Shown: positions 3,043-58,763, counted from the stretch's first letter. The stretch: DNA of 64,000 nt from Planctomycetota bacterium (GCA_038749735.1 JBCDHS010000008.1:5797-69796); one strand, 5' to 3'. The notes: a model not told the origin generated them from the sequence alone. Program-made: numbers and translations.

Positions 3043-3048
3043 TAGAAT
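3043..3048 (+). promoter_or_regulatory. -10 box (extended TG-A-TAGAAT), leaderless-type
   Basis: TAGAAT followed by 6 nt, then GTG 3055; no SD. Confidence 0.6.
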
Positions 3049-3054
3049 CCGGCC

Positions 3055-4977
3055 GTGAGCAAGAAGACCCCGACAGCATCCAAGCCTGGCCGCGCGTCCG
3101 ATCGCCCCGAGCGGCGGGTTAAACCCCGGACCAAGGCCCCCGCCCCGTGCTACGACATGGGCATCGTGGGCAACGGTCGGACCGCGGCACTCATCGACAA
3201 GGATGGCTCGGTCGTCTTTATGTGCTTCCCCGACTTCGACTCCGGAGCGGTGTTCTGCGACCTGCTCTCGAAGGATAAGGGGGGTAAGTTCGGCATCGAG
3301 ATCGTCGGTGGTAAAACGGCCTGGCAGCGCTACGAGGACCATACCAATGTGCTGGCGACGCGGTTTGAGTCGAAGGACGGCGGGTTTGACGTGATCGATT
3401 TCATGCCACGCTACCGGTTGGACGGCGCGGAGGAGCCCTGCCACCCGCCTGACCTGGTGCGGGTGGTGCGTCGGGTCTGGGGCAAGCCGAAGCTCCGGGT
3501 GCGTTACAACCCCCAACTCGAGTTCGCCAAGGGCGAGACGGATACTCAGATCATTGGCCCGGGTCGGATCAAGAGTACGGTCGAGCGGCAGGAGAAGGGC
3601 ACGGGCGAGACCTACGAGTCGGTGTACCTGCACACGGACCTGGATGTCGAGAAGGTGCTCAAAGGTCGGCCGATTGAGTTGGCGGGTGAGAAGTTCCTGC
3701 TGCTGAGCTACAACGACAAGCTGCGGGAGCCGACAAACACGCTGATCCGGCTGATGCTGGCCAAGACCCATGCGTACTGGTTCAACTGGGCGTCTCATAC
3801 AACCCACCCGCCGCTGTACCGTGACGCGGTGGTGCGCTCGGCGCTAACACTCAAGCTGCTTCAGTTCGGGCCGAGCGGCGCCCTGCTCGCGGCCGCGACG
3901 ACGTCATTACCCGAGTCGATCGGCGAGGTGCGGAACTGGGACTACCGGTTCTGCTGGATCCGAGACGCCTCGATGACCGTCTCGGTCCTGCGACGCATCG
4001 GCAACACCGGGATGGCCTACCGATTTGTCGACTGGGTGATGGATACCGTCCCGACCAAGGACGACAACCTGCAGATCATGTACGGCATCCGCGGGGAGAA
4101 GAACCTGACCGAGAAGACCCTGGACCACCTCGACGGTTACATGGGTTCTAAGCCCGTGCGGGTTGGCAACGCCGCGTACAAGCAGAAGCAGCACGACATC
4201 TATGGCGCCGTGCTCGATGTGATCTGGCAGACCCTGCCGCACTTCGCCGACCGCTTCGACCGGATCGAGGAGGTCTGGACGCGGGTCCGCTCGGTGGTGC
4301 GGACGGTGGAGCGGCTCTGGCACCTGCCGGACCGAGGCATCTGGGAGATGCGGGGGATCAAGCGGCACTTTGTGTTTTCGAAGGTGCTGTGCTGGGTGGC
4401 GGTAGACCGTGCGGCGAAGATCGGCCGGGCGTTGGGCCGGGCGGAGTGGGCGGCTGAGCATGAAAGGCTCGCCGAGGAAATCCGGGCGGATGTGCAGCGC
4501 AAGGGCTGGAATGAAAAGGTCGGGGCTTACACCCAGTCCTATGGCAGCGAGGAATTGGACGCGTCCAACCTATTGATGCTGGACTACGGCTTCTGTTCAT
4601 CCCACGACCCGCGTTTTATCTCGACCGTCGAGCAGACCCAGAAGCACCTGGGTAGGGACGGGCTTCTCTACCGCTACAAGGGCAAGGACGACTTCGGCGA
4701 GCCGACCAGCGCGTTTACGATCTGCTCGTTCTGGATGGCCAAGGCCTTGGTGCGTATCGGTCGGCTGCAGGAGGGCCGGGACCTGTTTGAAGAGCTACTT
4801 GCCTGTACGAATCACGTCGGGCTGATGGCCGAGGACCTGGAGTTTAAGACCCGCCGGCAGCTGGGCAACTTCCCGCAAGCCTACTCTCACCTCGCGTTGA
4901 TCGACACGGCCCTTGCGATCAACGCCCAGGCGGGATGGACCGAGCCCACGGACCTGTCCGAGCGGGCGCTGTACTGA
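3055..4977 (+). CDS. Glycoside hydrolase family 15 (glucoamylase/trehalase-like)
   Basis: AAATTSLPE...RNWDYRFCWIRD, GIWEMRG and LGNFPQAYSH motifs. Confidence 0.92.
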   Translation: MSKKTPTASKPGRASDRPERRVKPRTKAPAPCYDMGIVGNGRTAALIDKDGSVVFMCFPDFDSGAVFCDLLSKDKGGKFGIEIVGGKTAWQRYEDHTNVLATRFESKDGGFDVIDFMPRYRLDGAEEPCHPPDLVRVVRRVWGKPKLRVRYNPQLEFAKGETDTQIIGPGRIKSTVERQEKGTGETYESVYLHTDLDVEKVLKGRPIELAGEKFLLLSYNDKLREPTNTLIRLMLAKTHAYWFNWASHTTHPPLYRDAVVRSALTLKLLQFGPSGALLAAATTSLPESIGEVRNWDYRFCWIRDASMTVSVLRRIGNTGMAYRFVDWVMDTVPTKDDNLQIMYGIRGEKNLTEKTLDHLDGYMGSKPVRVGNAAYKQKQHDIYGAVLDVIWQTLPHFADRFDRIEEVWTRVRSVVRTVERLWHLPDRGIWEMRGIKRHFVFSKVLCWVAVDRAAKIGRALGRAEWAAEHERLAEEIRADVQRKGWNEKVGAYTQSYGSEELDASNLLMLDYGFCSSHDPRFISTVEQTQKHLGRDGLLYRYKGKDDFGEPTSAFTICSFWMAKALVRIGRLQEGRDLFEELLACTNHVGLMAEDLEFKTRRQLGNFPQAYSHLALIDTALAINAQAGWTEPTDLSERALY

Positions 4978-4983
4978 CCCGCC

Positions 4984-6567: not shown

Positions 6568-7636
6568 GCAGCGCGTGCATGCGGCGCTGGTGCCCGATCT
6601 CGCCGGGCATCCCATTGAACACAACCCCCACCGCCAGGCCATGATCCGGATCGGCAAAGCCGACGGATGACTGGGCACCGCCGTGGCCGAAGGTCTCCCG
6701 GCTCGCGTGGTCACCGTAACCGTAGGGCACGAGCCCCGCATCACCGCCCGGGGCATGGTGCGCCGAGTTGATCACAAACCCAAGCCCCCAGTCCACGACC
6801 GACTTGAAAGTCTGGTCCAGCATCTCTGTACGCCTTCGGCCGGTCATCAGCTCGACCGTCTCCGCCTGCAATAAACGCTCACCCTCGCCCGACACGCCAC
6901 CGGCCAGCAGCATCTCGTAGAAGCGCACCAACTCCGAGATCGGGCCCATGCAGTTGCCGCCGGGGCGTGGGCGGGTCGACCAGTCCGGCCCGGTCAGGCC
7001 CGAGGCCCTTATCTCGCTGGTTGCCGTGCTCGGCATGGCGAGCAACCGGCCGGCCGCCTCGTACCGCTCATAGACGTCCGTCGGCATGCCGAGCCACGAA
7101 TCCAGCATGCCCAAAGGGAGAAAAACCTCTTCACGGACATAGGTGTCGATCGTCCGCCCATCGACCAGGCGGACCAGTTCGCCAAGGATGAACCAGCTGG
7201 TCTGCACGTGGTAGCCCGCGCCCTGCCCCGCGGCCCACTCGGGCTGGGTATCACAGATCGCAGCGATGATCGTGTCCCAATCATCACGAGGAAACTTGAA
7301 GCGGGCCGTGCGGATGCCCGCCGTGTGTGTGAGCAGGTGACGGACCGTAATGTCACCCTTGCCGTGCGCCGCGAAGCCCGGCAGGAAGGCGGCCACGGGG
7401 TCGTCCCACTCGATCTCGCCTTGCTCGACAAGCTGGGTGATCGCCACCGCCGTCACCGGCTTGCCGCTGCTCATCCACAGCGCGATCGACTGATCCGTCA
7501 TCGCATGCCCGGGCGACGCCTCACCAACCGCCAGCGCCGCGACCGTTTGCCCCTCCCGCGAAACGCAGAGCTGCGCCCCGGTATGCAGGCCCTGTTCAAT
7601 CCCCTCCCCGATCCATGCCTCAACGCGACTGAGCAT
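6533..7636 (-). CDS. Serine hydrolase, beta-lactamase class C/PBP family
   Basis: SxxK (MSSGK), LLTHTAG, YH and FGHGG motifs. Confidence 0.9.
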   Translation of the reverse strand: MLSRVEAWIGEGIEQGLHTGAQLCVSREGQTVAALAVGEASPGHAMTDQSIALWMSSGKPVTAVAITQLVEQGEIEWDDPVAAFLPGFAAHGKGDITVRHLLTHTAGIRTARFKFPRDDWDTIIAAICDTQPEWAAGQGAGYHVQTSWFILGELVRLVDGRTIDTYVREEVFLPLGMLDSWLGMPTDVYERYEAAGRLLAMPSTATSEIRASGLTGPDWSTRPRPGGNCMGPISELVRFYEMLLAGGVSGEGERLLQAETVELMTGRRRTEMLDQTFKSVVDWGLGFVINSAHHAPGGDAGLVPYGYGDHASRETFGHGGAQSSVGFADPDHGLAVGVVFNGMPGEIGHQRRMHALLTALYEDLGLA

Positions 7637-7642
7637 AAGGCC

Positions 7643-7648
7643 ATGATA
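7643..7648 (-). promoter_or_regulatory. -10 box TATCAT, leaderless-type
   Basis: 6 nt before ATG 7636; no SD. Confidence 0.55.
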
Positions 7649-7682: not shown

Positions 7683-8831
7683 TCAAGTGCCGAAGAGCTC
7701 CATCTGCCCTTTCGTGGATGGGGGCCGGAAGTGCTTACCGCTCAGTGGGGTGATGTGCCGGTTCAGGCCGTACCGCCGCGTGAAGACGTCGAACATCTCG
7801 GCGATCTGGCTGGCGATTACGCCCCTGCCGCGCATGCGCTGGCCTTGCTTGGCGTGGTAGAGCTTGCCGCCGTGGGCCTGGCGGATCAGCGACTCGACGT
7901 GGGCCGAACGCTCCGGCACGTGCCGGTCCAGCCAGTCCAGGAACAACTCCTTGAGCTGGTACGGCAGACGCAGCATCACCCAGGCCACCCGCTTGGCCCC
8001 CGCCGCGGCGACCGCGTCCAGGATCGCCGGCACCTCCTGGTCGGTCAGGCCCGGGATCACCGGCGCGATGTTCACCGAGACCGCCACCCCCGCCTTGCTC
8101 AACTCGCGGATCATGCGCACCCGGCCGACCGGGCTGCTCGCCCTCGGCTCCAGCTTGCTCGCCAGGACATCGTCCAGCGTCACCAGCGTCACCGTCACCC
8201 GCCCGGCGTTACGGCGGGACAGTTCCGCCCACAACTCGGTATCACGCAACGCGAGCGTGTTCTTGGTCATGGTTGCGACCGGCTGGCTGCATGCCGTCAT
8301 GACCTCCAGGCACCGCCGAGCGATCTGGTGCTCCTTCTCCAAGGGCTGATAGATGTCTGTAATCGCCGACATCACGATCGGCTCGGGCTTCCAACGGGGG
8401 CTGGCCAACTCGCGCTCCAGCATCTGCGGCGCATCAAACTTCGCCACCAGCTTCGTCTCAAAGTCCAGCCCCATCGAGAAGCCCAGGTACTCATGGTATG
8501 GCCGAGCAAAGCAGTAGATACACCCGTGCTCGCAGCCACGGTAGGGGTTAACGGTCCAGTCGAACGGGACGTCTGCCGTGGACGCGACGCGGTTGATCAG
8601 TTTGCGTGTCTGGTCCGCGTAGACCCGCAATGGGACGGTCACCGGCCGACCATCCTCGCCCGCCCACTGCCGCTCCAGCCGTTGGTAGTCGATGGCGTCG
8701 CCCAGTACGTGCAGGCGGCTGTCCTCAAAGCGGTTCCCGGGGTTCAGCCCTGCACCACGCCGGTGGACTTGTTGCCCGTCCGGCAAGGCATCGCGATACA
8801 TTGGTTCCGGCGTCTGATCCGATTCTGCCAT
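7683..8831 (-). CDS. Radical SAM protein, PA0069/Rv2578c (SPL-like) family
   Basis: NPYRGCEHGCIYCFAR (CxxxCxxC), TDIYQPLE and KLEPRAS motifs. Confidence 0.9.
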   Translation of the reverse strand: MAESDQTPEPMYRDALPDGQQVHRRGAGLNPGNRFEDSRLHVLGDAIDYQRLERQWAGEDGRPVTVPLRVYADQTRKLINRVASTADVPFDWTVNPYRGCEHGCIYCFARPYHEYLGFSMGLDFETKLVAKFDAPQMLERELASPRWKPEPIVMSAITDIYQPLEKEHQIARRCLEVMTACSQPVATMTKNTLALRDTELWAELSRRNAGRVTVTLVTLDDVLASKLEPRASSPVGRVRMIRELSKAGVAVSVNIAPVIPGLTDQEVPAILDAVAAAGAKRVAWVMLRLPYQLKELFLDWLDRHVPERSAHVESLIRQAHGGKLYHAKQGQRMRGRGVIASQIAEMFDVFTRRYGLNRHITPLSGKHFRPPSTKGQMELFGT

Positions 8832-8837
8832 GCACAA

Positions 8838-8843
8838 ACAATA
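8838..8843 (-). promoter_or_regulatory. -10 box TATTGT, leaderless-type
   Basis: 6 nt before ATG 8831; no SD. Confidence 0.5.
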
Positions 8844-9058
8844 ACCGTACATGCGAGGCGGTCAACGGATAAAGATATTTGAACCCCGCCCACGACGTGC
8901 GTGACCCACCCAACCCACTTGAAGGCACGTCCATGCCAGAGCCGTGTCATCGGAATAGGGCCAGGCTTACCGCAATGAGGCCGAGATGCTTTGTGTCAAT
9001 CGCATGAAGGGACACGCGCAACCAAACCCTCACCGCTTTTGGCTCGACATCGATCTGA

Positions 9059-12670: not shown

Positions 12671-14401
12671 TTACTTCTTGGCCTGCTTCGCCCAGGAATC
12701 ACGAAGCGTTGACGTCCGGTTGAAGATGAATTGATCATCCGCCGAATCGGCATCCTTGACGAAATACCCAACACGCTCAAACTGGATCGGCTGGCCGACC
12801 TCGGCGTCCGCCAGGGCCGGCTCGATCTTGGCCGTGGCAACCCGAAGTGATTGGGGATTGAGGTTCTCGCGCCAGTCCCGGCCGTCGTCCTTGCCGTCGT
12901 TCGGGTCGTCGGTTGCGAACAACCGGTCGTACAGGCGGACCTCGGCGTCGATGGCATGCCGGGCGCTGACCCAGTGGATCGTGCCCTTGACCTTGCGGAC
13001 CTTGCCCTCGGCGTCGGGGGGCGGGTTCTCGCCGCCGCGCGTCTGGGGGTCGTAGGTACAGCGAAGCTCGACCACCTCGCCCGCCTCGTCCTTGATCACG
13101 TACGTGCAGGTGATCCAGTAGCCGTAGCGCAGCCGGACCTCTCGGCCGACCGACAGGCGGAAAAACTTGCGGGGGGCGTCTTCCATGAAGTCTTCACGCT
13201 GGATGTAGAGCTCTTTGCAGAACGGCACCTGCCGCGTGCCCGCCGACTCGTCCTCGGGGTTGTTCACCGCTTCCATCATCTCGACCCGGTCGTCGGGGTA
13301 GTTGGTAATGACCACCTTGATCGGGTCGAGCACCGCGCTGCGCCGCAGTGCGGCCTTGTTCAGATCTTCGCGGACACAGTTCTCCAGCAGCGCGATCTCG
13401 ATCATCTTGTGCCGCCGGGACATCCCGACCGTGTCGACCAGGCTGCGCAGCGCGGCGGCGGTATACCCCCGGCGTCGCATCCCCGAGATCGTCGGCATGC
13501 GCGGGTCGTCCCACCCGTTGACTTTGCCTTCCTCGACCAGCGCCAGCAGGTTGCGCTTGGACATCATCGTGCCCGAGAGATTGAATCGGCCGAACTCGAT
13601 CTGCCGGGGGTGGTGGCCGACGCCCGCCGGGGCCGCGCCCAGTTCGTCGATCTTCTCGATGAACCAGTTGTAGAGCGGGCGGTGGGCTTCAAACTCCAGC
13701 GAGCAGAGCGAGTGGGTCACACCCTCGATCCAGTCCGACTGGCCGTGGGCAAAGTCGTACATCGGGTAGATGCACCAGTCCCGGCCCGTGCGCGGGTGCT
13801 CGGCGTGGAGGATCCGGTACATCACCGGGTCACGCAGCAGCATGTTCGGGCTGGCCATATCGATCTTCGCCCGCAGGACCTTCGCCCCGTCGGGAAACTC
13901 GCCGGCCTTCATCCGCGCGAACAGATCCAGGCTCTCTTGAGCGGTCCGGTCACGATAAGGCGAGGCCGAGCCAGGGGAGGTCACCGTGCCCCGGGTGGCG
14001 CGCATCTCTTCGAGGGTCTGGTCATCGACGTAGGCATAGCCGTGCTCGATCAGCAACTGGGCCCAGGCGTAGAGCCGATCGAAGTAGTCCGAGGCATGGT
14101 ATTCGTGCTCACCCCAGTCAAAGCCCAGCCAGCGGATGTCCGCCTTGATCGCGTCGATGTACCGCTGTTCTTCCTTGGCCGGGTTCGTGTCATCGAAGCG
14201 CAGGTGGCACCGTCCGCCGAAGTCTCGGGCGATGCCGAAGTTCAGCAGGATCGTCGTCGCGTGGCCGATGTGCAGAAAGCCGTTGGGCTCGGGCGGGAAG
14301 CGCGTGACCGGGGCCGGGTGCTTGCCGGCCTGCTGGTCCTCGGCCACGATCTGGCGGAGGAAGTTTTCGGGCGCAGTGGTCTGTTCGTCGGCTTTGCTCA
14401 T
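12671..14401 (-). CDS. glnS: Glutaminyl-tRNA synthetase
   Basis: [43 protein letters not shown] and QFERVGYF motifs. Confidence 0.97.
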
Positions 14402-14410
14402 AACAATGGC

Positions 14411-14447
14411 ATTCTACTGAAATCGAGTTGGACTGAGCCGCTACAAT
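14411..14447. promoter_or_regulatory. Back-to-back -10 boxes: TAGAAT (minus, glnS) and TACAAT (plus, gltX)
   Basis: TAGAAT at 14416-14411 is 9 nt before the glnS ATG; TACAAT at 14442-14447 is 7 nt before the gltX ATG. No SD on either side. Confidence 0.6.
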
Positions 14448-14454
14448 CCCGGCC

Positions 14455-16134
14455 ATGTCCGCTGTCACCGACCCACAACCCGTCGTCACCCGCTTTGCCC
14501 CCAGCCCGACCGGGGCGCTGCACATCGGCGGCGCGCGGACGGCCCTCTTCGCCTGGGCCTACGCCCGCAAGCACCGCGACATCCCCGGCAGCAAGTTCAT
14601 CCTCCGCTTCGAAGACACCGACCAGAAGCGGTCTAGCAAAGCGTCGGCCCGGGGCATTGTCCGCGACATGAAGTGGCTGGGCCTGGACTGGGACGAGGGC
14701 CCGAGCTTGGATGAAGACGCCGACCCCTACACGGACCAGATCGGCGACGCCGGGCCATACACCCAGAGTCAGCGGGCCGAGCAGGGTATCTACGACCAAT
14801 ACATCGATCTGCTGCTCGAGGCAGGCGAGGCCTACGAAGACGCCGGCGCAGTCCGGCTGAAGATGGGCGAACACCGCGGCGATATCGCTTTCGATGATGC
14901 CGTATTCGGCCACATCGAAGTCAAAGCCGCAGACCTGGAAGACTTCGTCATCCGCAAGAGCGAAGACGGGGGCAGGCTGCCAACCTTTCACTTCGCCGTG
15001 GTGATCGACGACGCCCTGATGGGCGTGACCCACGTGATCCGAGGCCAGGAGCACCTAAGCAACACGACCAAGCACGCAGCGCTCTACGATGCCCTGGCGA
15101 AGCTGACGGATGACCCCATGGCCTGGGCCAGGCCGGTGTGGGTCCACACGCCGAGCATCATGAACCCCGGCGGGTCGAAGATGAGTAAGCGGGATAAGGC
15201 GAAGGCTGCGAGATCGGCAATGAAGAACAGCCTCAATGAAGCGAGCGATTGGGTTAGTGCCGCAGTCGATCAGATCAGCGAATCCTTCTCAACTCGCGGA
15301 GATGGAATAGATAGCTTTGAACTTGGAAGTTTTCTCGAAGCCAAGCAAGACACCGCTTGGATAGCTCAAGTGATCGCCGACCATTTAGGCCTACGACTCC
15401 CCGAGATAGATGTTGACGACTTCAAAAATTCCGGCTATCTCCCCGAGGTCTGCCTGAACTACATCGCCCTGCTCGGCTGGAACCCCGGCGACGACATCGA
15501 ACGCTTTGACCTCGCCTTCCTGACCGAGAAATTTTTGCTGGACCGCATCGGCAAGGCCAACTCGACGTTTGACCGCGACAAGCTGCGCTCGTTCAACGGC
15601 GACACCATCCGCGCGATGCCCGCAGACGACTTCACCTGCCTGCTGGCTGACTACGTCAAGGCCTACCGCCCCGACTGGCATAACGCTGGCATCTTCAACG
15701 GCGGTGACTGGGGCGCGTTCTGCTCGGCCGTGCAGGAGCGAACCGAGACGCTGCCGATGCCGCTGGACGCGAACGCGTACCTGATCGCCGAGGACGACGC
15801 GATCGACTACGACTTTTCGCCCAAGCCGATCCGCAAGGCGATGACCAACAGCAACGGCGCGGGGGTCAAACTGCTCGAAGAGCTACGGGCGGCGTTTGAC
15901 GGCCTGCCTGAAGCGAACTTCGGCCACGCGGCACACGAGAAGATAAACGAACTGGCCGAGACCTCCGGTACCAACATGGGCAAGTACGCCCAGCCCGTGC
16001 GCATTGCGGTGTCCGGATCGACGGTGACCCCGCCGCTGGACGTGACGCTGGACCTGCTGGGCAAGTTGGCGGTGCTCAAGCGCATCGGCCGATGCCTGGC
16101 TGCGGCGAATAAACACATGGAAGCAAACGCATGA
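14455..16134 (+). CDS. gltX: Glutamyl-tRNA synthetase
   Basis: TRFAPSPTGALHIGGARTAL, RFEDTD, THVIRGQEHLSNT, KMSKR, and a C-terminal P-R-A-SG...TPPL anticodon-binding domain. Confidence 0.95.
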   Translation: MSAVTDPQPVVTRFAPSPTGALHIGGARTALFAWAYARKHRDIPGSKFILRFEDTDQKRSSKASARGIVRDMKWLGLDWDEGPSLDEDADPYTDQIGDAGPYTQSQRAEQGIYDQYIDLLLEAGEAYEDAGAVRLKMGEHRGDIAFDDAVFGHIEVKAADLEDFVIRKSEDGGRLPTFHFAVVIDDALMGVTHVIRGQEHLSNTTKHAALYDALAKLTDDPMAWARPVWVHTPSIMNPGGSKMSKRDKAKAARSAMKNSLNEASDWVSAAVDQISESFSTRGDGIDSFELGSFLEAKQDTAWIAQVIADHLGLRLPEIDVDDFKNSGYLPEVCLNYIALLGWNPGDDIERFDLAFLTEKFLLDRIGKANSTFDRDKLRSFNGDTIRAMPADDFTCLLADYVKAYRPDWHNAGIFNGGDWGAFCSAVQERTETLPMPLDANAYLIAEDDAIDYDFSPKPIRKAMTNSNGAGVKLLEELRAAFDGLPEANFGHAAHEKINELAETSGTNMGKYAQPVRIAVSGSTVTPPLDVTLDLLGKLAVLKRIGRCLAAANKHMEANA

Positions 16135-29597: not shown

Positions 29598-29668
29598 CGG
29601 TAAGCCTCCTAGAGAGATACGGTGCATTTAGCCATGTCTTCAGGATAGACGGTGTTGGAGCGGTCGTA

Positions 29669-33590: not shown

Positions 33591-34880
33591 TCAGCCGGAT
33601 TGGCGAATCGTCAAGTCCGTCTTACCCGGTATCGCGTTGACCTTTCCGTCTGCGATCTTGTCGAAGCCGCTGCCGAGTTCGCCGATCGGGTCGGGCGGAG
33701 CGATCTCGACGACCTTCTCGCCGAGTTTGGCTTCGCCGGCCATGACCTTTTTCTCGAAGCCCTGGCACTCCTGCATCAGGCGGTCGAGGATCTCGGCCTC
33801 GGGGACGTTGGCGACCTTCTGGCCCTGGACGTAGATGATGCCACGCTGGTTGCCGGCGAAGATCGCGACGTCCGCGCCCTCCGCCTCGCCCGGGCCGTTG
33901 ACGATGCAGCCCATGACCGCGACCTTGATCGGCAGGGTGAGGGTTTTAAGTTTTTCCCGCACCTCCTGGATCAGCGTGAATAAGTCGACCTGGATGCGAC
34001 CACAGGTCGGGCAGCCGATCAGGTCGACGCCGACGCGCTCTCGCAGCCCTAGGCAGTAGAGCAGTTCCAAGCCATCTTCGACTTCATAGACCGGGTCGTT
34101 GGCGTAGCTGATGCGGATCGTGTCGCCGATCCCCGAAGCCAGGAGATGACCCAGCGGCACGGCGCTACGGATGGTACCGGTCTCTTTAGGCCCGGCGTGG
34201 GTCACCCCGAGATGAAGCGGGTGGTCGAAGCGCTTGCTGATCTCGGTGTACGCGTCGATGACCAGCGTCGGGTCCGGTGACTTGGCGCTGATGGTGATGT
34301 CGTAGAAATCGTTGTTGTAGAAGATGTCGAGGTATTCTTCGAGCTTGGTCAGCATGATGGCCAGGAAGTGGCCGTGGCGGTGATCCGAAAAGACCCCGCC
34401 CAGTTCCTTGAGGCGTTTCTGCTTGTCCCGGCGTTCAACGATCGAGCCCTCATTGACGCCGATGCGGATCGGCAGGCCCTTATCTTTGCAGGCCGCGATG
34501 ACCTCTTCGACCTGCTTGCGGTCGCTGATGTTGCCCGGGTTCAGGCGGATCTTGTGGACGCCGGCCTCGACGGCCTCGAGCGCCCGGCCGAAATGGAAAT
34601 GCACGTCCGCGACGATCGGCACGCCGACCTGCGGGAGGATGTCTTTGAGCGCCTCGGTGTCGTTCTTGCCGGGCACAGCCACGCGGACAATGTCGGCCCC
34701 GGCGGCGGCGAGTTTGTTAATGTCCGCGACGCAGGTGCCCACCTCATGGGTATAGCCGGCCGTCATCGTCTGGACCGACACCGGTGCGGGCGAGGTGCCG
34801 TTCTTGCCGCCGCCGACGAGCACGCGGCCAACGCGGTCATCTCCGACGACGACTTGTCGCGTGGGTCTTCGCTGGATCAT
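33591..34880 (-). CDS. ispG: (E)-4-hydroxy-3-methylbut-2-enyl-diphosphate synthase
   Basis: SVQTMT, VADVHF, RLNPGN, HLGVTHAG, CPTCGR and GCIVNGPGE motifs; start revised to 34880. Confidence 0.96.
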   Translation of the reverse strand: MIQRRPTRQVVVGDDRVGRVLVGGGKNGTSPAPVSVQTMTAGYTHEVGTCVADINKLAAAGADIVRVAVPGKNDTEALKDILPQVGVPIVADVHFHFGRALEAVEAGVHKIRLNPGNISDRKQVEEVIAACKDKGLPIRIGVNEGSIVERRDKQKRLKELGGVFSDHRHGHFLAIMLTKLEEYLDIFYNNDFYDITISAKSPDPTLVIDAYTEISKRFDHPLHLGVTHAGPKETGTIRSAVPLGHLLASGIGDTIRISYANDPVYEVEDGLELLYCLGLRERVGVDLIGCPTCGRIQVDLFTLIQEVREKLKTLTLPIKVAVMGCIVNGPGEAEGADVAIFAGNQRGIIYVQGQKVANVPEAEILDRLMQECQGFEKKVMAGEAKLGEKVVEIAPPDPIGELGSGFDKIADGKVNAIPGKTDLTIRQSG

Positions 34881-34886
34881 GAGGGG

Positions 34887-34892
34887 ATTATA
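34887..34892 (-). promoter_or_regulatory. Perfect -10 box TATAAT, leaderless-type
   Basis: 6 nt (CCCCTC) before ATG 34880; no SD. Confidence 0.7.
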
Positions 34893-34945
34893 GGTCAACG
34901 CGGCACCGGTCCACCCTCACGAAACGCTGCGCGTTAAAGCTCGCT

Positions 34946-38367: not shown

Positions 38368-39336
38368 CTATAGGCCGTGTAAAGGTTTTTTACGCACCGT
38401 GCCCGGCGGTTCACCAAACTGCCGCTTGTATGCTCGGCAGAACGAGGCCTCGGACTCGTAGCCCACGTCGATCGCGATCTTTCCGACCGGGTCGGGGGTG
38501 TCACGCAGACGATGGCGCGCAACCTGCATGCGCCAACGCGTGACGTAGCGCATCGCTGGCTCTCCGACCAGTTCGGTGAAGCGAGCGGCAAAGCCCGAAC
38601 GCGACATGCACGCCACTTCTGCCATCGATTCGACATTCCATGGGTCCTGCGGCCGGCCGTGCACGGCACTCATCGCCTTGCCGATCAGCGGATCGCGCAG
38701 CGCCACCAGCCAGCCTTGTGATTCGCCCCCGCCCTGCTCGATCCATCGGCGGATCATCTGGATCACCAAGATGTCTGACAACCGGGTCACCACCGCCTCG
38801 CTGCCCGGACGCATCGCCTGAACCTCACGCACCATGAAACGCAACGTGCTGTGTAGCCAACCGTCCGCGTCGTCCGCCCAAGCGTCTAGCGTCATCACCG
38901 GCGGGAGCAGTGGCAGCAAGTGATCGGCCGCGACGTCTTCCAACTGGACCAGCACGCAGAGCATACGCGCCGACTCGCCACCGCCTCCGTGGCGCATCAC
39001 TTCATAGCGCTCGCTGTATCGCTGCACGGGGATATCAAATAGCGGGGTGGCTGGCGACGGCTGGGTTCCCCGGAGGATGTGCCCCTCACCGTGTGGAACC
39101 AGGGCCATCCCGCCCTGGCTAAGTGACACCGGCTCGCCACCCTCCCGCTCGATCACACATGACCCGGCCGTCACGATGTGAAAAATCATCGAACCCGGGA
39201 ACGGGGGGAGATCCACACCCCAGGGGGCCGAATATTCACCCCGGCAGTAGAAGCTGCCGGTCAACCGCAGCAGATGCAGGGTCTGAGCAAGCGGGTCGCC
39301 GGATTCAGCGAAGGGGGAGGGGGTTGGACTATCCAT
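38368..39336 (-). CDS. AraC-family regulator (cupin_6 + HTH)
   Basis: APWG cupin domain; MSRSGFAARF...GYESEASFCRAYKR. Confidence 0.92.
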   Translation of the reverse strand: MDSPTPSPFAESGDPLAQTLHLLRLTGSFYCRGEYSAPWGVDLPPFPGSMIFHIVTAGSCVIEREGGEPVSLSQGGMALVPHGEGHILRGTQPSPATPLFDIPVQRYSERYEVMRHGGGGESARMLCVLVQLEDVAADHLLPLLPPVMTLDAWADDADGWLHSTLRFMVREVQAMRPGSEAVVTRLSDILVIQMIRRWIEQGGGESQGWLVALRDPLIGKAMSAVHGRPQDPWNVESMAEVACMSRSGFAARFTELVGEPAMRYVTRWRMQVARHRLRDTPDPVGKIAIDVGYESEASFCRAYKRQFGEPPGTVRKKPLHGL

Positions 39337-39342
39337 GCAATC

Positions 39343-39370
39343 ATTATGTCAAAAATATTCATTAATGCAA
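39343..39370 (-). promoter_or_regulatory. Sigma70 promoter TTGCAT-16-CATAAT, leaderless-type, in an AT-rich divergent spacer
   Basis: CATAAT (39348-39343) lies 6 nt before the araC ATG; TTGCAT at 39370-39365. Confidence 0.55.
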
Positions 39371-43528: not shown

Positions 43529-43610
43529 ATCCGTTACTCCACGAGGTCATGTCGATTCTACCCGCCATGCCTGTCCCCGCTCGGCTTGAGGCATCTATAC
43601 TGTTGCGTCA

Positions 43611-44120
43611 ATGAGCTCAGCCCCACCGCCCAACACAAATGTCCATCGTGCTAAACGCCCACTCGGCCGGGCCTCGACCGAACCCGCCACCGGCCAGCCC
43701 GAACCGGCCAAGCGAAAGCCACGACGCAGCCGGGTGCGCACCCGCAACTGCTCAAAGTGCTTTACCCCCTGCACCACACTAACACGCTACAAGCTCGGCC
43801 CATCCGGGGCGTCTCAGTACATCTGCGATATCTGCTGGCCGACCTACTGCGCCGACAACAAAGACTACATCTACCTGGGCACCTGGCAGAACGGGCGGAT
43901 CATCGACCGCAAGCGTGTGGACAACGCCAAAACACCCAGGCGTCCCGAAACGTCCGGGGCCGGTCCGGTAGCACCTGAGAAGGCATCCCAACCGCAAGCC
44001 TCCCCCGCACCAAGCCATAGCGCAACACCCGCCAAGCAGACCTTCCGCAAACGCGGCCGGCGTACACTCAGCCGGCTGGTCCGCCGCGAGGGTGGCGCGG
44101 GTTCGCGGCGCCGGGAATAG
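43611..44120 (+). CDS. Small basic protein with a CxxC...CxxC zinc-ribbon-like core
   Basis: CSKC...YICDICWP...YIYLGTW flanked by R/K/P-rich tails; TATACT 9 nt upstream. Confidence 0.6.
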   Translation: MSSAPPPNTNVHRAKRPLGRASTEPATGQPEPAKRKPRRSRVRTRNCSKCFTPCTTLTRYKLGPSGASQYICDICWPTYCADNKDYIYLGTWQNGRIIDRKRVDNAKTPRRPETSGAGPVAPEKASQPQASPAPSHSATPAKQTFRKRGRRTLSRLVRREGGAGSRRRE

Positions 44121-47761: not shown

Positions 47762-47971
47762 CGCAAACACGGGATCATAACCCAATCCAGCGCAGACCCC
47801 TACCGTCTTTGCCTAATTCCCCGCCGGGCGTGTTCCAAAGCCTCAAGCCGGAATCACCGTTCAATGACCCTTGTCAGATCGGCCCGTAGGGCTTATCCTA
47901 GAAGGGCTTACAGGTACCTCGCGCGTGCGTGGGCGGGACCTGTCTGGCGATTTCCCCCCTTGGAGCCCGAC

Positions 47972-49835: not shown

Positions 49836-51512
49836 TCACTCCTTGCCCAGCCGGACAATCGCTCGGTAGTTGTCTTGGAAGAAGCTCCGCCAGCGGATGC
49901 GGTTGATTTCCATCTGCTCGCTGTCCTTGCTCATCTTGTCGAGCTTATCTCCCCAGGCGTTAAGCGTCTCAACAACTTGAGCATGGTCGGGGTGGCTCGG
50001 GTCGGCCTGGATTGCTTCCCAGTTCTGCGCGATCTCCTGGCTCGGCCAGGTCAGCGTCAGAGGCTCGGGCATCGCGTCAAACAGGTCCAGCATCTTCGAC
50101 AGATTAGGGTGGCCGCTTTTTTTTGCCTCAATGACTGCTTTCCACGCCGCGATCAGGTCGTCGTGGGTGTCGATGGCCATGGCCTGGGTTGTGACCGCGA
50201 TGATGCCATAATAATCGGGCGTGCCGTCGGGGAATGGGAAGGCCGTCGGATACGGATTAATTTCCGGGTCGGTCCATGTCACCCGCTGCTCATCGGTATA
50301 GATGTCCTGCCGGATCGGCTGGCGGCGGAGCTCGTACTTGTCCGGCGGGTCCATGCCGGCCGCGGTCGAGTCGAGTCGACGCTGCCAGACCCCCTGGGCC
50401 TCGATCGACAAGAGCCAGTGGATAAAGTGCTGCGCGAGTTCCTTGTGCGGGGCGCCGCGCAGCAGCGTGACCGGGTCGGCCGTGGTCGCGGTCATGCTCT
50501 TGCCGTCGATGATCGGATCGACGTAGCCGAGGCGGTCGCCGCCGATCATCCCCGACTGGTACCGGCCGTAGAAATCGATGCACATCCCCACTGCCGCGTC
50601 GCCTTTAGAGACATCGACAGGGATCTTGTCCGAGCTGGTCGCGAAGTACCGGGCGTTGGCAAAGACCCGGCGGAGCGTGTGCCACCCTTCGTCCCAGCCC
50701 TCGCGTCGGAGCACGGCGTTGAAAGTCGCGGTGATCGAGCCGGAGTGGCTTGGGTCGGCCAACGCCACCCAGCCGAGATACCTTGCATCCGTAAGATCAG
50801 CCCAGGTCGTGGGAGCCACCACAATGAACTCGGGGAGGGCGCTCTCTTGCTCATCGGCAGGCAAGGTGGGATCAAAACCCCCCACCCAATTACCGATTTT
50901 TAGTAATCGCAAAACATCCCGGTTGTACACGATGCCGAAGCTGGACAGCGTCACGCCGGTCCAGCCGAGGTACGTCTTGTCCTGCCCCTCCTCGACAAAG
51001 GTGTATCGCCGATAGAGGCGTTCGCCACCGATCCGCTCGGCGGGGAAGACGCTGGCCATCAACTCAGCGGGGATCTCCGGGTCATCGACGATCCGGAGGT
51101 CGATCTCTTGACCATCTCGCTCCACCTCAACGCCCGAGGCGACCTTGCCATGGTCATAGTCGCCGCCACCGAAGAACAGGTCGGCCCCGATGCCGTCGTC
51201 AAGGCTGTCGCCGCGGCTGACGATAGCTTCGTACTGGCTGAGGATCGATTTGCGGATGTCGCCGGTGCCGCCGGGGGAGCGCCAATCGAACTGCACCGGT
51301 GCCAGGCCGCTGGAGAGGCGGTGCTTGTTGTAGGCGATGGCGATCTCGTGGCGGATCTGCTCGTTGTGCGGCGTGAAGACGACCAGGCGGTGCTGCTCGT
51401 CGGCCTCGACGCGGCTGGCATCAGCGCCGCCCGCGGGCTTGAGCACGATCGGCACGCCCACAATCAGGACGAGCAGGCCGACGATGACGATCTTGGGAAG
51501 GGCATCTCGCAT
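49836..51512 (-). CDS. ABC transporter substrate-binding protein (Fe3+/thiamine-like cluster)
   Basis: ADLFFGGG, GIVYN, LADPSHSGS, GWDEGW, GDAAVGMCIDFYG and KELAQHFIHWLLS motifs. Confidence 0.82.
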   Translation of the reverse strand: MRDALPKIVIVGLLVLIVGVPIVLKPAGGADASRVEADEQHRLVVFTPHNEQIRHEIAIAYNKHRLSSGLAPVQFDWRSPGGTGDIRKSILSQYEAIVSRGDSLDDGIGADLFFGGGDYDHGKVASGVEVERDGQEIDLRIVDDPEIPAELMASVFPAERIGGERLYRRYTFVEEGQDKTYLGWTGVTLSSFGIVYNRDVLRLLKIGNWVGGFDPTLPADEQESALPEFIVVAPTTWADLTDARYLGWVALADPSHSGSITATFNAVLRREGWDEGWHTLRRVFANARYFATSSDKIPVDVSKGDAAVGMCIDFYGRYQSGMIGGDRLGYVDPIIDGKSMTATTADPVTLLRGAPHKELAQHFIHWLLSIEAQGVWQRRLDSTAAGMDPPDKYELRRQPIRQDIYTDEQRVTWTDPEINPYPTAFPFPDGTPDYYGIIAVTTQAMAIDTHDDLIAAWKAVIEAKKSGHPNLSKMLDLFDAMPEPLTLTWPSQEIAQNWEAIQADPSHPDHAQVVETLNAWGDKLDKMSKDSEQMEINRIRWRSFFQDNYRAIVRLGKE

Positions 51513-51518
51513 CGCCCA

Positions 51519-51524
51519 AGGATA
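51519..51524 (-). promoter_or_regulatory. -10 box TATCCT, leaderless-type
   Basis: 6 nt before ATG 51512; no SD. Confidence 0.55.
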
Positions 51525-51535
51525 GCGGCCAAGAA

Positions 51536-52693
51536 CTAATTCAGCAGCCTGTCTTGCGCAAGTTTTACGGCGGCCTGTTCAAGCAGCTCGCCCGATCGGC
51601 GGATCGATTCCTCGGCCGGCAAGCCCGCGCCGATGACGTGGTAGGCGGACAGGCCGTGCCTGAGCGCGTGGTCGGCCCCCTCGCCAGCGCTGCCGACGAG
51701 CGCATGGCACGGCACGCCCGCCGCTTGGCAACGCCTCGCGACCGCAATCACCGCCTTGCCGTTCAACGATTGGTGATCGAGTCGGCCCTCCCCGGTGATG
51801 ACCAGGTCCGCGCCGCTGATCCGCTCATCAAAGCCGATCGTTTCCAGGATCAGTTCGGCTCCGGGCACCAGTTCCGCCCCAAGCATTGCCACCAGTCCCC
51901 CGGCCACGCCGCCCGCCGCGCCCGCGCCCGGCAGGTGCTCGACATCAACCCCCAGCTGATCACGCCAGAGACCGGCGATATGCCGCAGGCCCGCGTCAAG
52001 CTGCTCGACCTGCGGCGGGGTCGCGCCCTTCTGCGGGCCGTAGACATGCGCGGCCCCCGCAGCCCCGGTGAGCGGATTATCCACATCACAGGCCAGGACG
52101 AGCCTTGCGCCAACGTCTTCAAAGACGCTGCGCTCGGGCAGCTTGATCCGGCTGATGCGCGTCAGGGCTTGGCCTCCAGCGTATGGCTTGATCGGCTGCC
52201 CATCACGGTCGGTCAGCTTGACGCCCAGATGCATCGCGATCCCGATCCCGGCATCAACCGTCGCGCTGCCCCCCAGCCCCAGGATGTACCGCGTAGCGGC
52301 GCAGCTGGCCACCGCTTTGGACAACAGCATGCCGCTGCCCAGGGTTGAGGTCTTGAAAGGGTCACGTTCATGCGGCTTGAGCCGTTCGATCCCTGACGCA
52401 CCGGCCAGGTCCATGATGACCGCGGTGCTTGGCGCATGGGCGCTATGCCCGATCTCGATCCACTCGGCCAGGGTCGGGCGGCCCAATGCATCAACGGTGG
52501 GCTCGCGGGTCGTCATGGCGTCGGGCTCGTTCTGCGCGTAGGCCCGAGCAAATCCCTCGCCTCCGTCTGACATCACCAAGCGTTGAACGCGAGCCTCGGG
52601 CACGGCCTTGTGCACGCCGGCCATGATGCGCCTGCCGGCTTGCTCTGAGCCCAGAGCGTCTTTGAAGCTGTCCGGGGCGACGACGATCTGCAT
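51536..52693 (-). CDS. glxK: Glycerate kinase
   Basis: IVVAPDSFKDAL, SDGGEG, GLGGSATVDAG, YGPQKGA and TGEGRLDHQS motifs. Confidence 0.93.
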   Translation of the reverse strand: MQIVVAPDSFKDALGSEQAGRRIMAGVHKAVPEARVQRLVMSDGGEGFARAYAQNEPDAMTTREPTVDALGRPTLAEWIEIGHSAHAPSTAVIMDLAGASGIERLKPHERDPFKTSTLGSGMLLSKAVASCAATRYILGLGGSATVDAGIGIAMHLGVKLTDRDGQPIKPYAGGQALTRISRIKLPERSVFEDVGARLVLACDVDNPLTGAAGAAHVYGPQKGATPPQVEQLDAGLRHIAGLWRDQLGVDVEHLPGAGAAGGVAGGLVAMLGAELVPGAELILETIGFDERISGADLVITGEGRLDHQSLNGKAVIAVARRCQAAGVPCHALVGSAGEGADHALRHGLSAYHVIGAGLPAEESIRRSGELLEQAAVKLAQDRLLN

Positions 52694-52699
52694 GCGGGC

Positions 52700-52724
52700 A
52701 TCCTAGCCGGCTCAGGCGTAGACT
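52700..52724. promoter_or_regulatory. Back-to-back -10 boxes TAGGAT (minus) and TAGACT (plus)
   Basis: Each lies exactly 6 nt before its ATG (52693 and 52731); the spacer is 37 bp. Confidence 0.65.
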
Positions 52725-52730
52725 GGGACG

Positions 52731-53240
52731 ATGGATGCGACCGTCACCGAGGTTGATACGGCGATGATGCGGCTTGCCCTCCAACAAGCCGAGCGAGCGG
52801 CCGAGATCGGTGAAGTCCCCGTCGGCGCGGTGGTCTACCGTGACCAGGCGGTGATCGCCAAAGCGCACAACCGGCGAGAGACCTGGGCAGACCCCACCGC
52901 TCATGCCGAGCTGATCGCGATGCGTGAGGCGGCGAAGAAGCTAGGCACCTGGCGGCTCGACGGCTGCCGGGTCGCGGTCACGCTCGAGCCTTGTCCGATG
53001 TGCGCCGGGGCCATGGTCAACGCCCGGGTCCAGGCCGCCGTCTTCGGGATCACCGACCCAAAGATGGGCTGTGTCCAGACCCTTCACCGGTTGCTGGACA
53101 CCCCGGCATTCAACCACCGCGTGCAGTGGGTCGGCGGCGTGCTGGCGGAGGAGAGCCTGAGGCTGCTGCAGGACTTCTTCCGGGCCAGGCGTCGGACCGA
53201 TCGGCCTCCCAAGCCCGGCCCGCCTCAAACAAAACGCTGA
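52731..53240 (+). CDS. tadA: tRNA-specific adenosine deaminase
   Basis: GEVPVGAV, DPTAHAE and TLEPCPMCAGA motifs. Confidence 0.93.
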   Translation: MDATVTEVDTAMMRLALQQAERAAEIGEVPVGAVVYRDQAVIAKAHNRRETWADPTAHAELIAMREAAKKLGTWRLDGCRVAVTLEPCPMCAGAMVNARVQAAVFGITDPKMGCVQTLHRLLDTPAFNHRVQWVGGVLAEESLRLLQDFFRARRRTDRPPKPGPPQTKR

Positions 53241-54444: not shown

Positions 54445-54501
54445 GCCAACTGTACACCATCATCCCAACGCCATCCCTCGCTCCTCTTTCGGGAATCGCA
54501 T

Positions 54502-56320: not shown

Positions 56321-56510
56321 TTAGGGAGGGGGCGAGGGGAGGGGTAAGGCGTGGGATCAACCGCGGTATACGGTTAGCAAATTGGCAAGCAGCGCAAGCA
56401 TTCTGTTCGCAAGCTTCGACTCGATTCCGGACACCCGACCCTCCCCCCGGCCCCCTCCCTAAGGGGGAGGGATAGCAAGGCGGCAACGGCCACTATTGAC
56501 ACATAGCGCG

Positions 56511-58691
56511 CTAGCCGACGTCAATCAGGCCCAGCGACTCGCCATAGCTCTGCAACAGGACCTTGCGGAGCGCGGCGTGTTCGGGGGCGCTTAGCCGCCA
56601 GTCCCGCTCGATCATGGCCTGGGCGTCCTGTCGGGCGAGGGCCAAGAGGTCCATATCGTCGGGGATGACGGCCGTCCGCAGCGGCGGCATCCCCGACTGC
56701 CGGGTGCCGAAGAAGTCGCCCATGCCACGGATAGCCAGGTCCTGCTCGGCGATTTTGAACCCGTCGCTGGTCGCGGCGATCGCCTTCATACGGGCCTCCG
56801 CGTCCTCGGTCGTCGGGTCGGCGATGAACACGCAGAGCGGGCGTCGGGTCGAAGCGCCCCGCCCGATCCGGCCGCGCAGCTGGTGGAGCTGGGACAAGCC
56901 AAAGCGTTCGGCGTGCTCGACAATCATGACGCTGGCGTTGGGCACATCCACGCCGACCTCGATCACCGTCGTTGCCACCAGCAACTGGGCCTGCCCGGTA
57001 CGGAAGCGCTGCATGACCCGTTCCCGCTCCTCACGCGGCAATCGCCCGTGCACCTCGACCACCTCGTAGGGGGGGCCAAGCTTCTGCCTCAGGGTGGTCG
57101 CGGTGTCGGCCACGTTCTTGAGCATCGCGCCCGAGTCCTCGGACTGCCCAGGCCCGTCGATGACCGGGACGACGACGTAGGCCTGCTCCCCACGCGCGAG
57201 ACGGGCCTTGAGGTACGCGTACACCTCGTCAATCTTCTCCGGCCCGACCACGCGGCTCTGGATCGGGACCCGGCCCGGGGGTTTGCCGGTAATCGTCGAG
57301 ATATCCAGGTCGCCAAAGATCGTCAGGGACAGGGTCCGCGGGATCGGTGTTGCGGTCATAACTAACTGGTGGGGCACGCGCAATCTGCCCTGCTCATCGG
57401 TCTCGCCGGCCGAACGCAGCCGGGCCCGCTGCATCACGCCGAACCGGTGCTGTTCGTCGACTACCGCCACCGCCAGCTCTTTGAACCTGACCGCCTGGGT
57501 CACCAGCGCCTGCGTCCCCACCACGATGTCCGCCTCGCCCGAAACGATTTCTTCAAGCAATGCATTGCGTGCCGCACTGCCCGACGCCCCCTGCCCCGCG
57601 GTCAGCAGCCGGACACGGATCGACGAGCCTTTCAACATGCTGGAGATCGAGCGGTGGTGCTGCTCGGCGAGCAACTCGGTCGGCGCCATCATGGCCGCCT
57701 GCTTGCGCTGGGCGACCGCGGCAAGCATGGCATAGAGGGCGACAACCGTCTTGCCCGATCCGACATCGCCCTGGACCAGCCGGTTCATGGGTTGGGACTG
57801 GGACAAGTCGTCACGCAGTGTTTGGATGACCTTGTCCTGGCTGGGCGTCAGGACAAACGCGAAGCGCTCCCGGATGTGTCGATCAACGGCGTCGCTGACC
57901 AGGATTGCCGGGGCGGCCTGCCGCTGATGGACATAGGCCCGCTTCATCGCGATCCCGAGTTGAAGCAGCAGCAATTCGTTGTAAGCCAGCCGCCGCCGGG
58001 CCGCCAGATGATCCTCCGGCTCGGTCGGCCGATGGGCCTGGCGAAAAGCGGTCGCCAGGTCAGGCATGTTGTGCGCCGCCAGCAACTCGGCGGGCAACGG
58101 GTCTTCGAGCTTGGGCGTCACCCGCTCGATCGCGGTTGCGATCAGCTTCTCGATCGCTGATGAAGGCAGGCCCTGGGTCGCGGGGTAGACCGGCCGTAGA
58201 CGGCCGGCCTTGCCCGGCTGCTCCTGGGCCTCGTCTTCGCTCATCAGCTCCCACTTCGGGTTGACCATCTGCGGATAGCCGCTAAAGAGCTTCGCCTTGC
58301 CGTGTACGCGCAGCGGCTGGCCGGGCCTGATCCGATCACGCAGGTAGGCGGCGTTGAACCATGTCAACAACAGCCCGCCCGAGTCGTCCTGGAGCGTGGC
58401 TTCGTAGCGCCCCTTCTTGCCGAACTGCCCGCCGACCCAGCGGGAGGCGGCGATGACGCCACGGGCGGACCCGACGGATTGGCCGTCCGCCGGCAGGTCT
58501 GCGATCAGGCCCTCGGCCGCCTCCGGTTCGTAACGCACCGGCAGGTGGCGTAGGAGATCCGTAACCGTATGGATCTCCAACCGTGCTAATAGCCCGGCCT
58601 TGGCCGGGCCGACGCCCGGCAGCTTCTTGACGCTCGCGCCGGGTCTCAGCGGTTCAGCATTACCTGCAGATGACTCGGTCAACTCAGACAT
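56511..58691 (-). CDS. recG: ATP-dependent DNA helicase RecG
   Basis: Wedge domain, GDVGSGKT, DEQH, MTATPIPR and QLRGRIGRG motifs; start revised to 58691. Confidence 0.96.
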   Translation of the reverse strand: MSELTESSAGNAEPLRPGASVKKLPGVGPAKAGLLARLEIHTVTDLLRHLPVRYEPEAAEGLIADLPADGQSVGSARGVIAASRWVGGQFGKKGRYEATLQDDSGGLLLTWFNAAYLRDRIRPGQPLRVHGKAKLFSGYPQMVNPKWELMSEDEAQEQPGKAGRLRPVYPATQGLPSSAIEKLIATAIERVTPKLEDPLPAELLAAHNMPDLATAFRQAHRPTEPEDHLAARRRLAYNELLLLQLGIAMKRAYVHQRQAAPAILVSDAVDRHIRERFAFVLTPSQDKVIQTLRDDLSQSQPMNRLVQGDVGSGKTVVALYAMLAAVAQRKQAAMMAPTELLAEQHHRSISSMLKGSSIRVRLLTAGQGASGSAARNALLEEIVSGEADIVVGTQALVTQAVRFKELAVAVVDEQHRFGVMQRARLRSAGETDEQGRLRVPHQLVMTATPIPRTLSLTIFGDLDISTITGKPPGRVPIQSRVVGPEKIDEVYAYLKARLARGEQAYVVVPVIDGPGQSEDSGAMLKNVADTATTLRQKLGPPYEVVEVHGRLPREERERVMQRFRTGQAQLLVATTVIEVGVDVPNASVMIVEHAERFGLSQLHQLRGRIGRGASTRRPLCVFIADPTTEDAEARMKAIAATSDGFKIAEQDLAIRGMGDFFGTRQSGMPPLRTAVIPDDMDLLALARQDAQAMIERDWRLSAPEHAALRKVLLQSYGESLGLIDVG

Positions 58692-58697
58692 CAACAG

Positions 58698-58763
58698 ATC
58701 GTAACCGTCCGGCCTGATCCACGCGGGCAGGCTGGGCCCGGACACGCTGCACTAGAATACAAT
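58698..58763. promoter_or_regulatory. Divergent -10 boxes: TACGAT (minus, recG) and TACAAT/TAGAAT (plus, gntR)
   Basis: TACGAT at 58703-58698 is 6 nt before the recG ATG; TACAAT at 58758-63 is 8 nt before ATG 58772. Confidence 0.55.

Follow-up and report, generated by a model that had tools for sequence, protein, structure and literature searches.

Predicted leaderless genes behind -10-type elements in a 64-kb stretch of a marine Phycisphaeraceae genome

How is translation started at genes that carry a promoter-like hexamer where a Shine-Dalgarno (SD) sequence would be expected? The question is raised by a 64-kb stretch of contig JBCDHS010000008.1 (GCA_038749735.1), referred to here in its full length as the window, which comes from the genome of a marine member of the Phycisphaeraceae (Planctomycetota). 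A preliminary description of this DNA, made from the sequence alone, had listed ten genes with a -10-like hexamer 6 or 7 nucleotides (nt) before the start codon, together with near cases at gntR (8 nt), glnS (9 nt) and an open reading frame (ORF) at 43611 (9 nt), and three SD-led starts for contrast. It had read the hexamers as -10-dominated promoters that place the start of transcription on the start codon. Every one of these sites is present in the sequence as listed (Table 1), including the SD motifs at 29597 (TAGGAGG), 31534 (AAAGGA) and 59723 (GGAGG); the gene names agree with Pfam, and the proposed planctomycete origin can be narrowed to the family. From spacing, base composition and conservation among relatives, we conclude that the A of the ATG is probably the first base transcribed in these genes, so that the mRNA would be leaderless and translated from its 5'-terminal AUG.

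The closest relatives of the window are metagenome-assembled genomes (MAGs) of Phycisphaeraceae and other Planctomycetota. Close homologues of its IspG and GlxK proteins all belong to Phycisphaerales, among them the cultured Algisphaera agarilytica, Mucisphaera calidilacus and strain D3-23. A search of sequencing runs matched the window to two DNA runs only, both from a marine metagenome.

Spacing of the hexamer and gene context

The spacing was measured by a scan in which no starts were chosen. TANNNT-N(k)-[AG]TG was counted at every spacer length k between 0 and 30, with the start codon required to open an ORF no shorter than 150 codons and to lie no more than 60 codons from the upstream in-frame stop. 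The window holds eight such sites at k = 6 and three at k = 7, whereas the other spacers have a mean of 1.08 and a maximum of 3 (Poisson P = 1.7e-5). When the 40 nt preceding each of 229 candidate starts were dinucleotide-shuffled 1000 times, k = 6 scored 1.22 on average and never more than 7. Fifteen related loci were retrieved, and the 13 from Phycisphaerales (248 kb) entered the same scan; they contain 39 sites at k = 6 against a mean of 4.15 elsewhere (P ~1e-24), with the count falling to one at k = 5 and to six at k = 7.

The peak was not found in ~2.2 Mb of loci from other lineages obtained with the same retrieval queries, 264 kb of which exceed 62% GC; only two of these loci reach three matches at k = 6. 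Six control motifs of equal composition likewise gave no positional peak. When the motif was restricted to TA[CT]NNT, the peak at k = 6 stayed in the window and stood at 33 against 5.1 in the relatives, and it also persisted after the upstream-stop filter had been dropped; an artefact of in-frame TAA or TAG codons is therefore excluded. The excess belongs to ATG (45 ATG and 4 GTG), with none for TTG or CTG. Since the proposed start is the first start codon of its ORF at seven of the ten listed sites, the pattern is not made by fitting the choice of starts. The enrichment of TANNNT at a spacer of 6 nt is confirmed as real and beyond chance.

We classified 55 genes of the window by upstream signal, the starts of genes without a signal being approximate. 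TANNNT lies at 6-7 nt in ten of them and at 8-9 nt in two; ~20 have an SD-like motif, and the remainder have neither. The hexamer precedes 8 of the 22 divergently transcribed genes, against 1 of the 15 genes that follow a co-directional neighbour at a distance below 40 nt. In the divergent pairs glxK/tadA, glnS/gltX and recG/gntR, whose gaps measure 37, 53 and 80 nt, the -10 boxes stand back to back and therefore leave no space for SD-bearing leaders. Rfam and tRNA scans of the window found nothing, so there is no riboswitch or leader RNA to account for the upstream regions. The SD motifs form separate peaks of their own (GGAG at spacers 6-8, AGGA at 7-8 and AAGG at 9), which, beside the -10 class, indicates that the genome uses two modes of initiation. 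The emphasis on housekeeping genes in the preliminary description finds no support, since catabolic or regulatory genes are represented as well: the GH15, serine hydrolase, solute-binding protein (SBP) and glycerate kinase genes sit beside gltX, ispG, tadA and recG.

Promoter anatomy and conservation among orthologues

Positions unselected by the scan were compared between the 49 sites at k = 6 (window and relatives) and 1676 other TANNNT hexamers in the same DNA. Inside the hexamer, the third base is T in 43% of the sites (27% of the other hexamers), the fourth is A in 43% (17.5%) and the fifth is A in 51% (17%). Outside it, G occupies -14 in 59% (31%) and C occupies -1 in 55% (27%), while position +1 is A in 45 of the 49 sites and G in the other four. 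The 6-nt spacer is GC-rich, not A/U-rich. By these features, the sites look like sigma-70/SigA-type -10 elements. A -35 element is not enriched at 16-18 nt, where 4 of 35 sites match TTGACA in at least four of six positions against 2.7 in shuffles, and canonical two-hexamer promoters number zero in 49-60 kb against 1.5 expected. The earlier remark that most sites lack a -35 stands: a good one was seen at the radical SAM site only.

A further feature lies upstream of the hexamer. TTG at -18 to -16, separated from it by three bases, occurs in 6 of the 49 sites against 2.1% of the other TANNNT; examples are TTGACC at 34893-34898 of the window and cases in loci L166 and L167. This trinucleotide may be a proximal upstream element.

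In orthologues, the hexamer is retained at nine of the ten sites while the flanks and the spacer sequence diverge, and the 6-nt spacing is also retained at eight; at gltX, the spacer is 7 nt in the window and 9 nt in the orthologues. The clearest series is that of ispG, where TA[TC]A[AC]T, exactly 6 nt and ATG recur in five other genomes (Algisphaera agarilytica, L161; Mucisphaera calidilacus, L162; L163, L167 and L168) amid unrelated flanks and spacers. Orthologues of glxK have TACGAT+6+ATG (L170, L171 and L172), and those of tadA have TAAGAT+6 (L170) and TAGACT+6 (L171); the intergenic length between the two genes varies from 37 to 172 nt across the genomes compared, with the box geometry retained. 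The SBP gene is preceded by CGCTATCCTT+6+ATG in L170 and L171, the hydrolase gene by TACTAT+6+ATG in L173, with a conserved N-terminus, and recG by TACCAT+6+ATG in L081. Indels upstream of recG relative to L081 are not multiples of 3, so this upstream DNA is non-coding. At the radical SAM gene, the geometry TTGACC-16-TATTGT-6-ATG is identical in L001 and L002, and the coding sequence diverges with indels right after the ATG. The same two loci conserve CCGCTACAATCCC at gltX, with the 9-nt spacer, and TAGAAT at glnS, there at 8 nt. The GH15 orthologue in L174 (89% identical) has the same TAGAAT+6+GTG, whereas the more distant one in L173 has AGGAG and GTG instead. For the araC gene, no orthologue was found among the related loci compared. 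A reading of the glxK box as an SD sequence, with AGGA inside TAGGAT, was rejected, as its orthologues retain TACGAT and not AGGA.

Other starts show where the pattern ends. The leaderless-type geometry of the gntR near case is not kept in L081, where its counterpart has TATAAT 18 nt upstream together with AAGGA, and the L081 orthologue of the 59723 gene carries a full TTGACA/TATGAT promoter and an AAGGAG leader. In L004 and L005, two Phycisphaerae MAGs of ~50% GC, gltX is preceded at 5-7 nt by GGAGG or AAGGAG and has no -10 box, a hint that leaderless initiation may be confined to Phycisphaerales and may not extend to the whole class. Within Phycisphaerales, a -10 element at 6 nt is, judging from the loci compared, a common trait.

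One gene departs from the dominant spacing in a consistent manner. A miaB-like radical SAM gene (UPF0004/Radical_SAM; window 47759-47779, minus strand) has TATGAT exactly 12 nt before its ATG and no SD at its start. The hexamer also lies at 12 nt in its orthologues, as TATTAT in L163 (~3270-3304) and as TACAAT in Algisphaera L161 (~235-268). This suggests a conserved class with a predicted leader of ~5-6 nt.

Predicted mode of initiation and its alternatives

We propose that a large minority of transcription units would be driven by housekeeping sigma-70/SigA-type promoters consisting essentially of the -10 element alone (TAnnnT with T-A-A inside, often G at -14, and no -35). Counted from the A of the ATG, the hexamer occupies -12 to -7, a position from which RNA polymerase would begin transcription at that very A. 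The holoenzyme would thus recognise the -10 element and initiate on the start codon, and the resulting mRNA would have neither a 5' untranslated region nor an SD sequence. On the model of mycobacteria, Deinococcus and Streptomyces, the ribosome and fMet-tRNA would bind the 5'-terminal AUG directly. Other genes, many of them operon-internal, would use a conventional AAGGAG-type SD at 6-9 nt. On these features, the genome is predicted to be dual-mode, of the type that GeneMarkS-2 calls group C. The spacing peak, the conservation and the anatomy all support the -10-dominated promoters, placed for a start on the start codon, of the preliminary description.

Several points weigh against this account. 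The run search found no RNA-seq or metatranscriptome runs carrying the window, only DNA runs, so that start sites and leaderless translation are inferred. The sample per genome is small, at 64 kb for the window and 2.7-22 kb for each related locus. The leaderless share, predicted at roughly 20% of genes and 36% of divergent units, is itself rough because the starts of genes without a signal are approximate. A co-directional gene lies 23 nt upstream of the SBP site, and read-through transcription might reach this site as well. Finally, the spacer is not always 6 nt: it is 7-9 nt at gltX, glnS and gntR, and 9 nt at the SBP gene of L172, which implies leaders of 1-3 nt or a flexible choice of start site.

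These longer spacers, along with the conserved 12-nt class at the miaB-like gene, bear on a first alternative, in which the promoters are real and transcription begins 1-6 nt upstream of the ATG, giving very short leaders in place of strictly leaderless mRNAs. We consider this unlikely for the dominant class, in which a distance of exactly 6 nt, C at -1 and A at +1 reproduce the canonical interval from -10 element to start site; moreover, leaders of up to 5 nt are conventionally classed as leaderless (PMC3898074).

It is more doubtful still that the promoters are real but translation begins at a downstream in-frame start, with the apparent N-terminal codons forming an untranslated leader. Public annotation leans that way at the GH15 gene, which is called from 3157 in the window and, in L174, from an ATG located 21 nt after the conserved TAGAAT+6+GTG; GH15 homologues, however, conserve residues upstream of 3157. 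Pfam domains mostly open a few residues after the proposed starts (at residue 6 in the hydrolase and residue 3 for the glxK profile), with profiles beginning 1-10 residues from those of glxK, the hydrolase, tadA and gltX. Six genomes share the IspG N-terminus MI.RR.TRQV, its conservation beginning at codon 1. The excess at a spacer of 6 nt is also tied to ATG, a link that an untranslated leader would not need.

A signal acting at the mRNA level, on transcripts with leaders, is improbable to a similar degree. TANNNT at -12 to -7 does occupy the location of a ribosome-binding site, as would a non-SD motif of the group B style or an A/U element bound by S1, and the SBP site trails its co-directional neighbour by a short gap; in the single planctomycete of Nakagawa 2017, leaderless and S1 signals are not separable. 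What argues against such a signal is, first, the spike at a single nucleotide (39 sites at 6 nt, against one and six on either side) and the features proper to RNA polymerase, namely the interior bias of the hexamer, G at -14, and C at -1 followed by A at +1. Group B motifs stand before first and operon-internal genes alike, on mRNAs with leaders, and this was not found here, the hexamer being rare before tightly coupled internal genes (1/15 against 8/22 divergent ones). The spacer is GC-rich, a normal SD class is present in the same DNA, and at the radical SAM site the orthologues share a -35 at 16 nt.

Least credible of all is an artefact of chance or composition, through AT-richer intergenic DNA, in-frame TAA or TAG at -12 or fitted starts: although the chosen start is not the first of its ORF at three of the ten sites, and TAA and TAG hexamers are in-frame stops at k = 6, the same peak emerges from an ORF-based scan that chooses no starts, from TA[CT]NNT alone and without the stop filter, and is missing from shuffles, same-composition motifs and high-GC loci of other phyla.

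Known systems, start-codon assignments and neighbouring genes

Leaderless initiation from the 5'-terminal AUG, the reading that we prefer, has a well-mapped parallel in Mycobacterium tuberculosis, where start sites are preceded by TANNNT at -12 to -7, without a -35 and with S-R-N ahead of the hexamer (Cortes et al. 2013, PMC3898074). Position +1 is a purine and -1 a pyrimidine there, and 22-26% of genes are leaderless (PMC3898074). The window and its relatives share the position of TANNNT, the missing -35 consensus, the purine at +1 and pyrimidine at -1, the high GC content and the coexistence with SD-led genes, and G at -14 in 59% of sites stands where M. tuberculosis has S-R-N. About a quarter of M. 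tuberculosis genes have a start site on the start codon, and ~20% are predicted to in the window. The two cases differ in that M. tuberculosis is a Gram-positive actinobacterium whose start sites were mapped experimentally, whereas the window belongs to a planctomycete of the Planctomycetes-Verrucomicrobia-Chlamydiae (PVC) group and its start sites are deduced from sequence. Leaderless genes led by GTG are also rare in the window and its relatives (4/49), unlike in M. tuberculosis.

The in-silico signature is identical to that of GeneMarkS-2 group C (Lomsadze et al. 2018, PMC6028130) and of the TA-led genes of Zheng et al. 2011 (PMC3160421). As the main texts of these surveys present it, a Pribnow-like TANNNT lies 6-8 nt before the starts of operon-first genes, with SD sequences elsewhere (PMC6028130, PMC3160421), and an estimated 25-50% of operons are leaderless (PMC6028130, PMC3160421). 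The phyla that these main texts name are Actinobacteria, Deinococcus-Thermus, and some Proteobacteria and Firmicutes (PMC6028130, PMC3160421). Planctomycetes are not among the phyla with leaderless genes in the main text of Zheng et al. (PMC3160421) and are unmentioned in that of GeneMarkS-2 (PMC6028130). Deinococcus deserti and other Deinococcus-Thermus, as cited in these main texts, resemble the window in their high-GC genomes and TAnnnT logo (PMC6028130, PMC3160421); they form another phylum, with a higher leaderless fraction given there as ~40-60%, or 167/262 mapped genes (PMC6028130). The Bacteroidetes-type group B of GeneMarkS-2 is similar in that many genes lack an SD and have an AT-containing motif near the start. 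That motif also stands before operon-internal genes and is not a promoter, whereas that of the window is concentrated before first genes, alongside SD sequences at other genes, and is built like a promoter. Nakagawa 2017 offers a phylum-level hint only, from one planctomycete genome, and our full-text literature search found no paper beyond this hint that ties "leaderless" to Phycisphaerae or to named planctomycete genera.

We regard the signature as solid and of practical use, although it holds no surprise in mechanism, the predicted mechanism being familiar from mycobacteria and Deinococcus. The prediction adds a planctomycete clade to the bacteria predicted to depend heavily on leaderless mRNAs. 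It also supplies a start-codon rule for Phycisphaerales genomes and MAGs (TAnnnT, 6 nt, ATG), as illustrated by GH15, radical SAM, ispG and recG, and minimal native promoters, such as TATAAT+6 of ispG, for building expression systems in a group whose genetic toolbox is small. More tentatively, and with rather less confidence than an even chance would call for, Phycisphaerales, a Gram-negative PVC lineage, might have converged independently on the actinobacterial and Deinococcus regime, with rigid 6-nt, -10-only promoters and leaderless mRNAs for ~1/3 of units. In that case, the clade would lend itself naturally to asking which changes in sigma factor, RNA polymerase or ribosome go with a switch to leaderless expression, and Prodigal-style start calls in its many MAGs would be systematically wrong.

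The corrections to annotated starts proposed earlier hold, at 8831, 34880 and 58691 against the longest ORF and at GTG 3055 against the public call. For GH15 (gene 3055-4977), the evidence favours GTG 3055 over ATG 3157. The public call from 3157 (P0241, 606 amino acids) cuts a conserved N-terminal Y-D/H-M-G block; ahead of this block (YDMG), the frame offers no start codon other than GTG 3055. The radical SAM start is likewise favoured at 8831 over 8852. An ATG at 8852 is present in all three genomes and was rejected as the start: between 8852 and 8831, the seven codons show none but non-synonymous changes, placed around an invariant GGTTATTGT block, and with TTGACC 16 nt from TATTGT, this segment fits a promoter better than coding sequence. 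The evidence also favours 34880 over TTG 34898 for ispG and 58691 over GTG 58745 for recG.

Table 1. Start sites in the window with a -10-type hexamer or, for contrast, an SD sequence
Feature	Position	Strand	Elements and start
GH15/trehalase-like gene	3043..3057	+	TAGAAT 3043-3048, +6, GTG 3055
beta-lactamase-family serine hydrolase	7634..7648	-	TATCAT 7643-7648, +6, ATG 7636
radical SAM gene	8829..8865	-	-35 TTGACC 8860-8865, 16 nt, TATTGT 8838-8843, +6, ATG 8831
glnS, near-leaderless, predicted 2-3 nt leader	14399..14416	-	TAGAAT, +9, ATG 14401
gltX	14442..14457	+	TACAAT 14442-14447, +7, ATG 14455
SD-led contrast start	29597..29613	-	TAGGAGG, 7 nt, ATG 29597
ispG	34878..34892	-	TATAAT 34887-34892, +6, ATG 34880
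AraC-family regulator, weak member	39334..39351	-	TGA-CATAAT (hexamer 39343-39348), +6, ATG 39336
ORF 43611, doubtful gene	43596..43613	+	TATACT, +9, ATG
ABC solute-binding protein (SBP)	51510..51524	-	TATCCT 51519-51524, +6, ATG 51512; 23-nt gap after glxK
glycerate kinase glxK	52691..52705	-	TAGGAT 52700-52705, +6, ATG 52693
tadA	52719..52733	+	TAGACT 52719-52724, +6, ATG 52731; back-to-back with glxK, 37 nt intergenic
recG	58689..58703	-	TACGAT 58698-58703, +6, ATG 58691
GntR/FCD regulator (near case)	58758..58774	+	TACAAT, +8, ATG 58772
SD-led contrast start	59707..59725	+	GGAGG, 6 nt, ATG 59723

The Pfam families at these sites are GH15/TREH_N, a beta-lactamase-family hydrolase, radical SAM, GlnS, GltX, GcpE/IspG, Cupin_6-AraC, SBP, glycerate kinase, a TadA-type deaminase, RecG and GntR/FCD. 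Two of the listed sites stand in part. The araC box is present at the spacing claimed; with C at the first hexamer position, it is not TANNNT but an extended -10 of the TGN type, and hence a weak member of the set. At 43611, the hexamer and 9-nt spacer are likewise present, and it is the gene that is in doubt: the ORF (43611-44120) encodes a very basic, Cys-rich product of 169 amino acids with a weak codon-position GC signal, and it has no Pfam match. It may not be a gene, which makes its site doubtful as well.

Some neighbouring genes deserve mention. tadA is followed by a gene for an extracytoplasmic function (ECF) sigma factor (53240-53878), with overlapping stop and start, and by two genes without an assigned role (region 52731-56049); the synteny of tadA with the ECF sigma gene is retained in L169-L171. 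Over the 100-nt stretches compared in the glxK/tadA intergenic region, L169 (JBCDAC010000039.1, GCA_039186405.1) is identical to the window, and its GlxK, a partial call, is 94% identical overall to that of the window; it is probably the same species or a very close one. gltX ends in an ATGA (16131-16134) shared with the start of an EVE-domain gene, and a PfkB kinase gene follows 33 nt on. A -10 box and a clear SD are lacking at both of these genes, as would fit translational coupling inside a gltX operon; L001 and L002 have the same gene order. The protein encoded at 10050-11021 on the minus strand has a prepilin-type N-terminal motif, GFTLIELLVVISIIALL, which we take to be typical of the large planctomycete DUF1559/N-methyl family.

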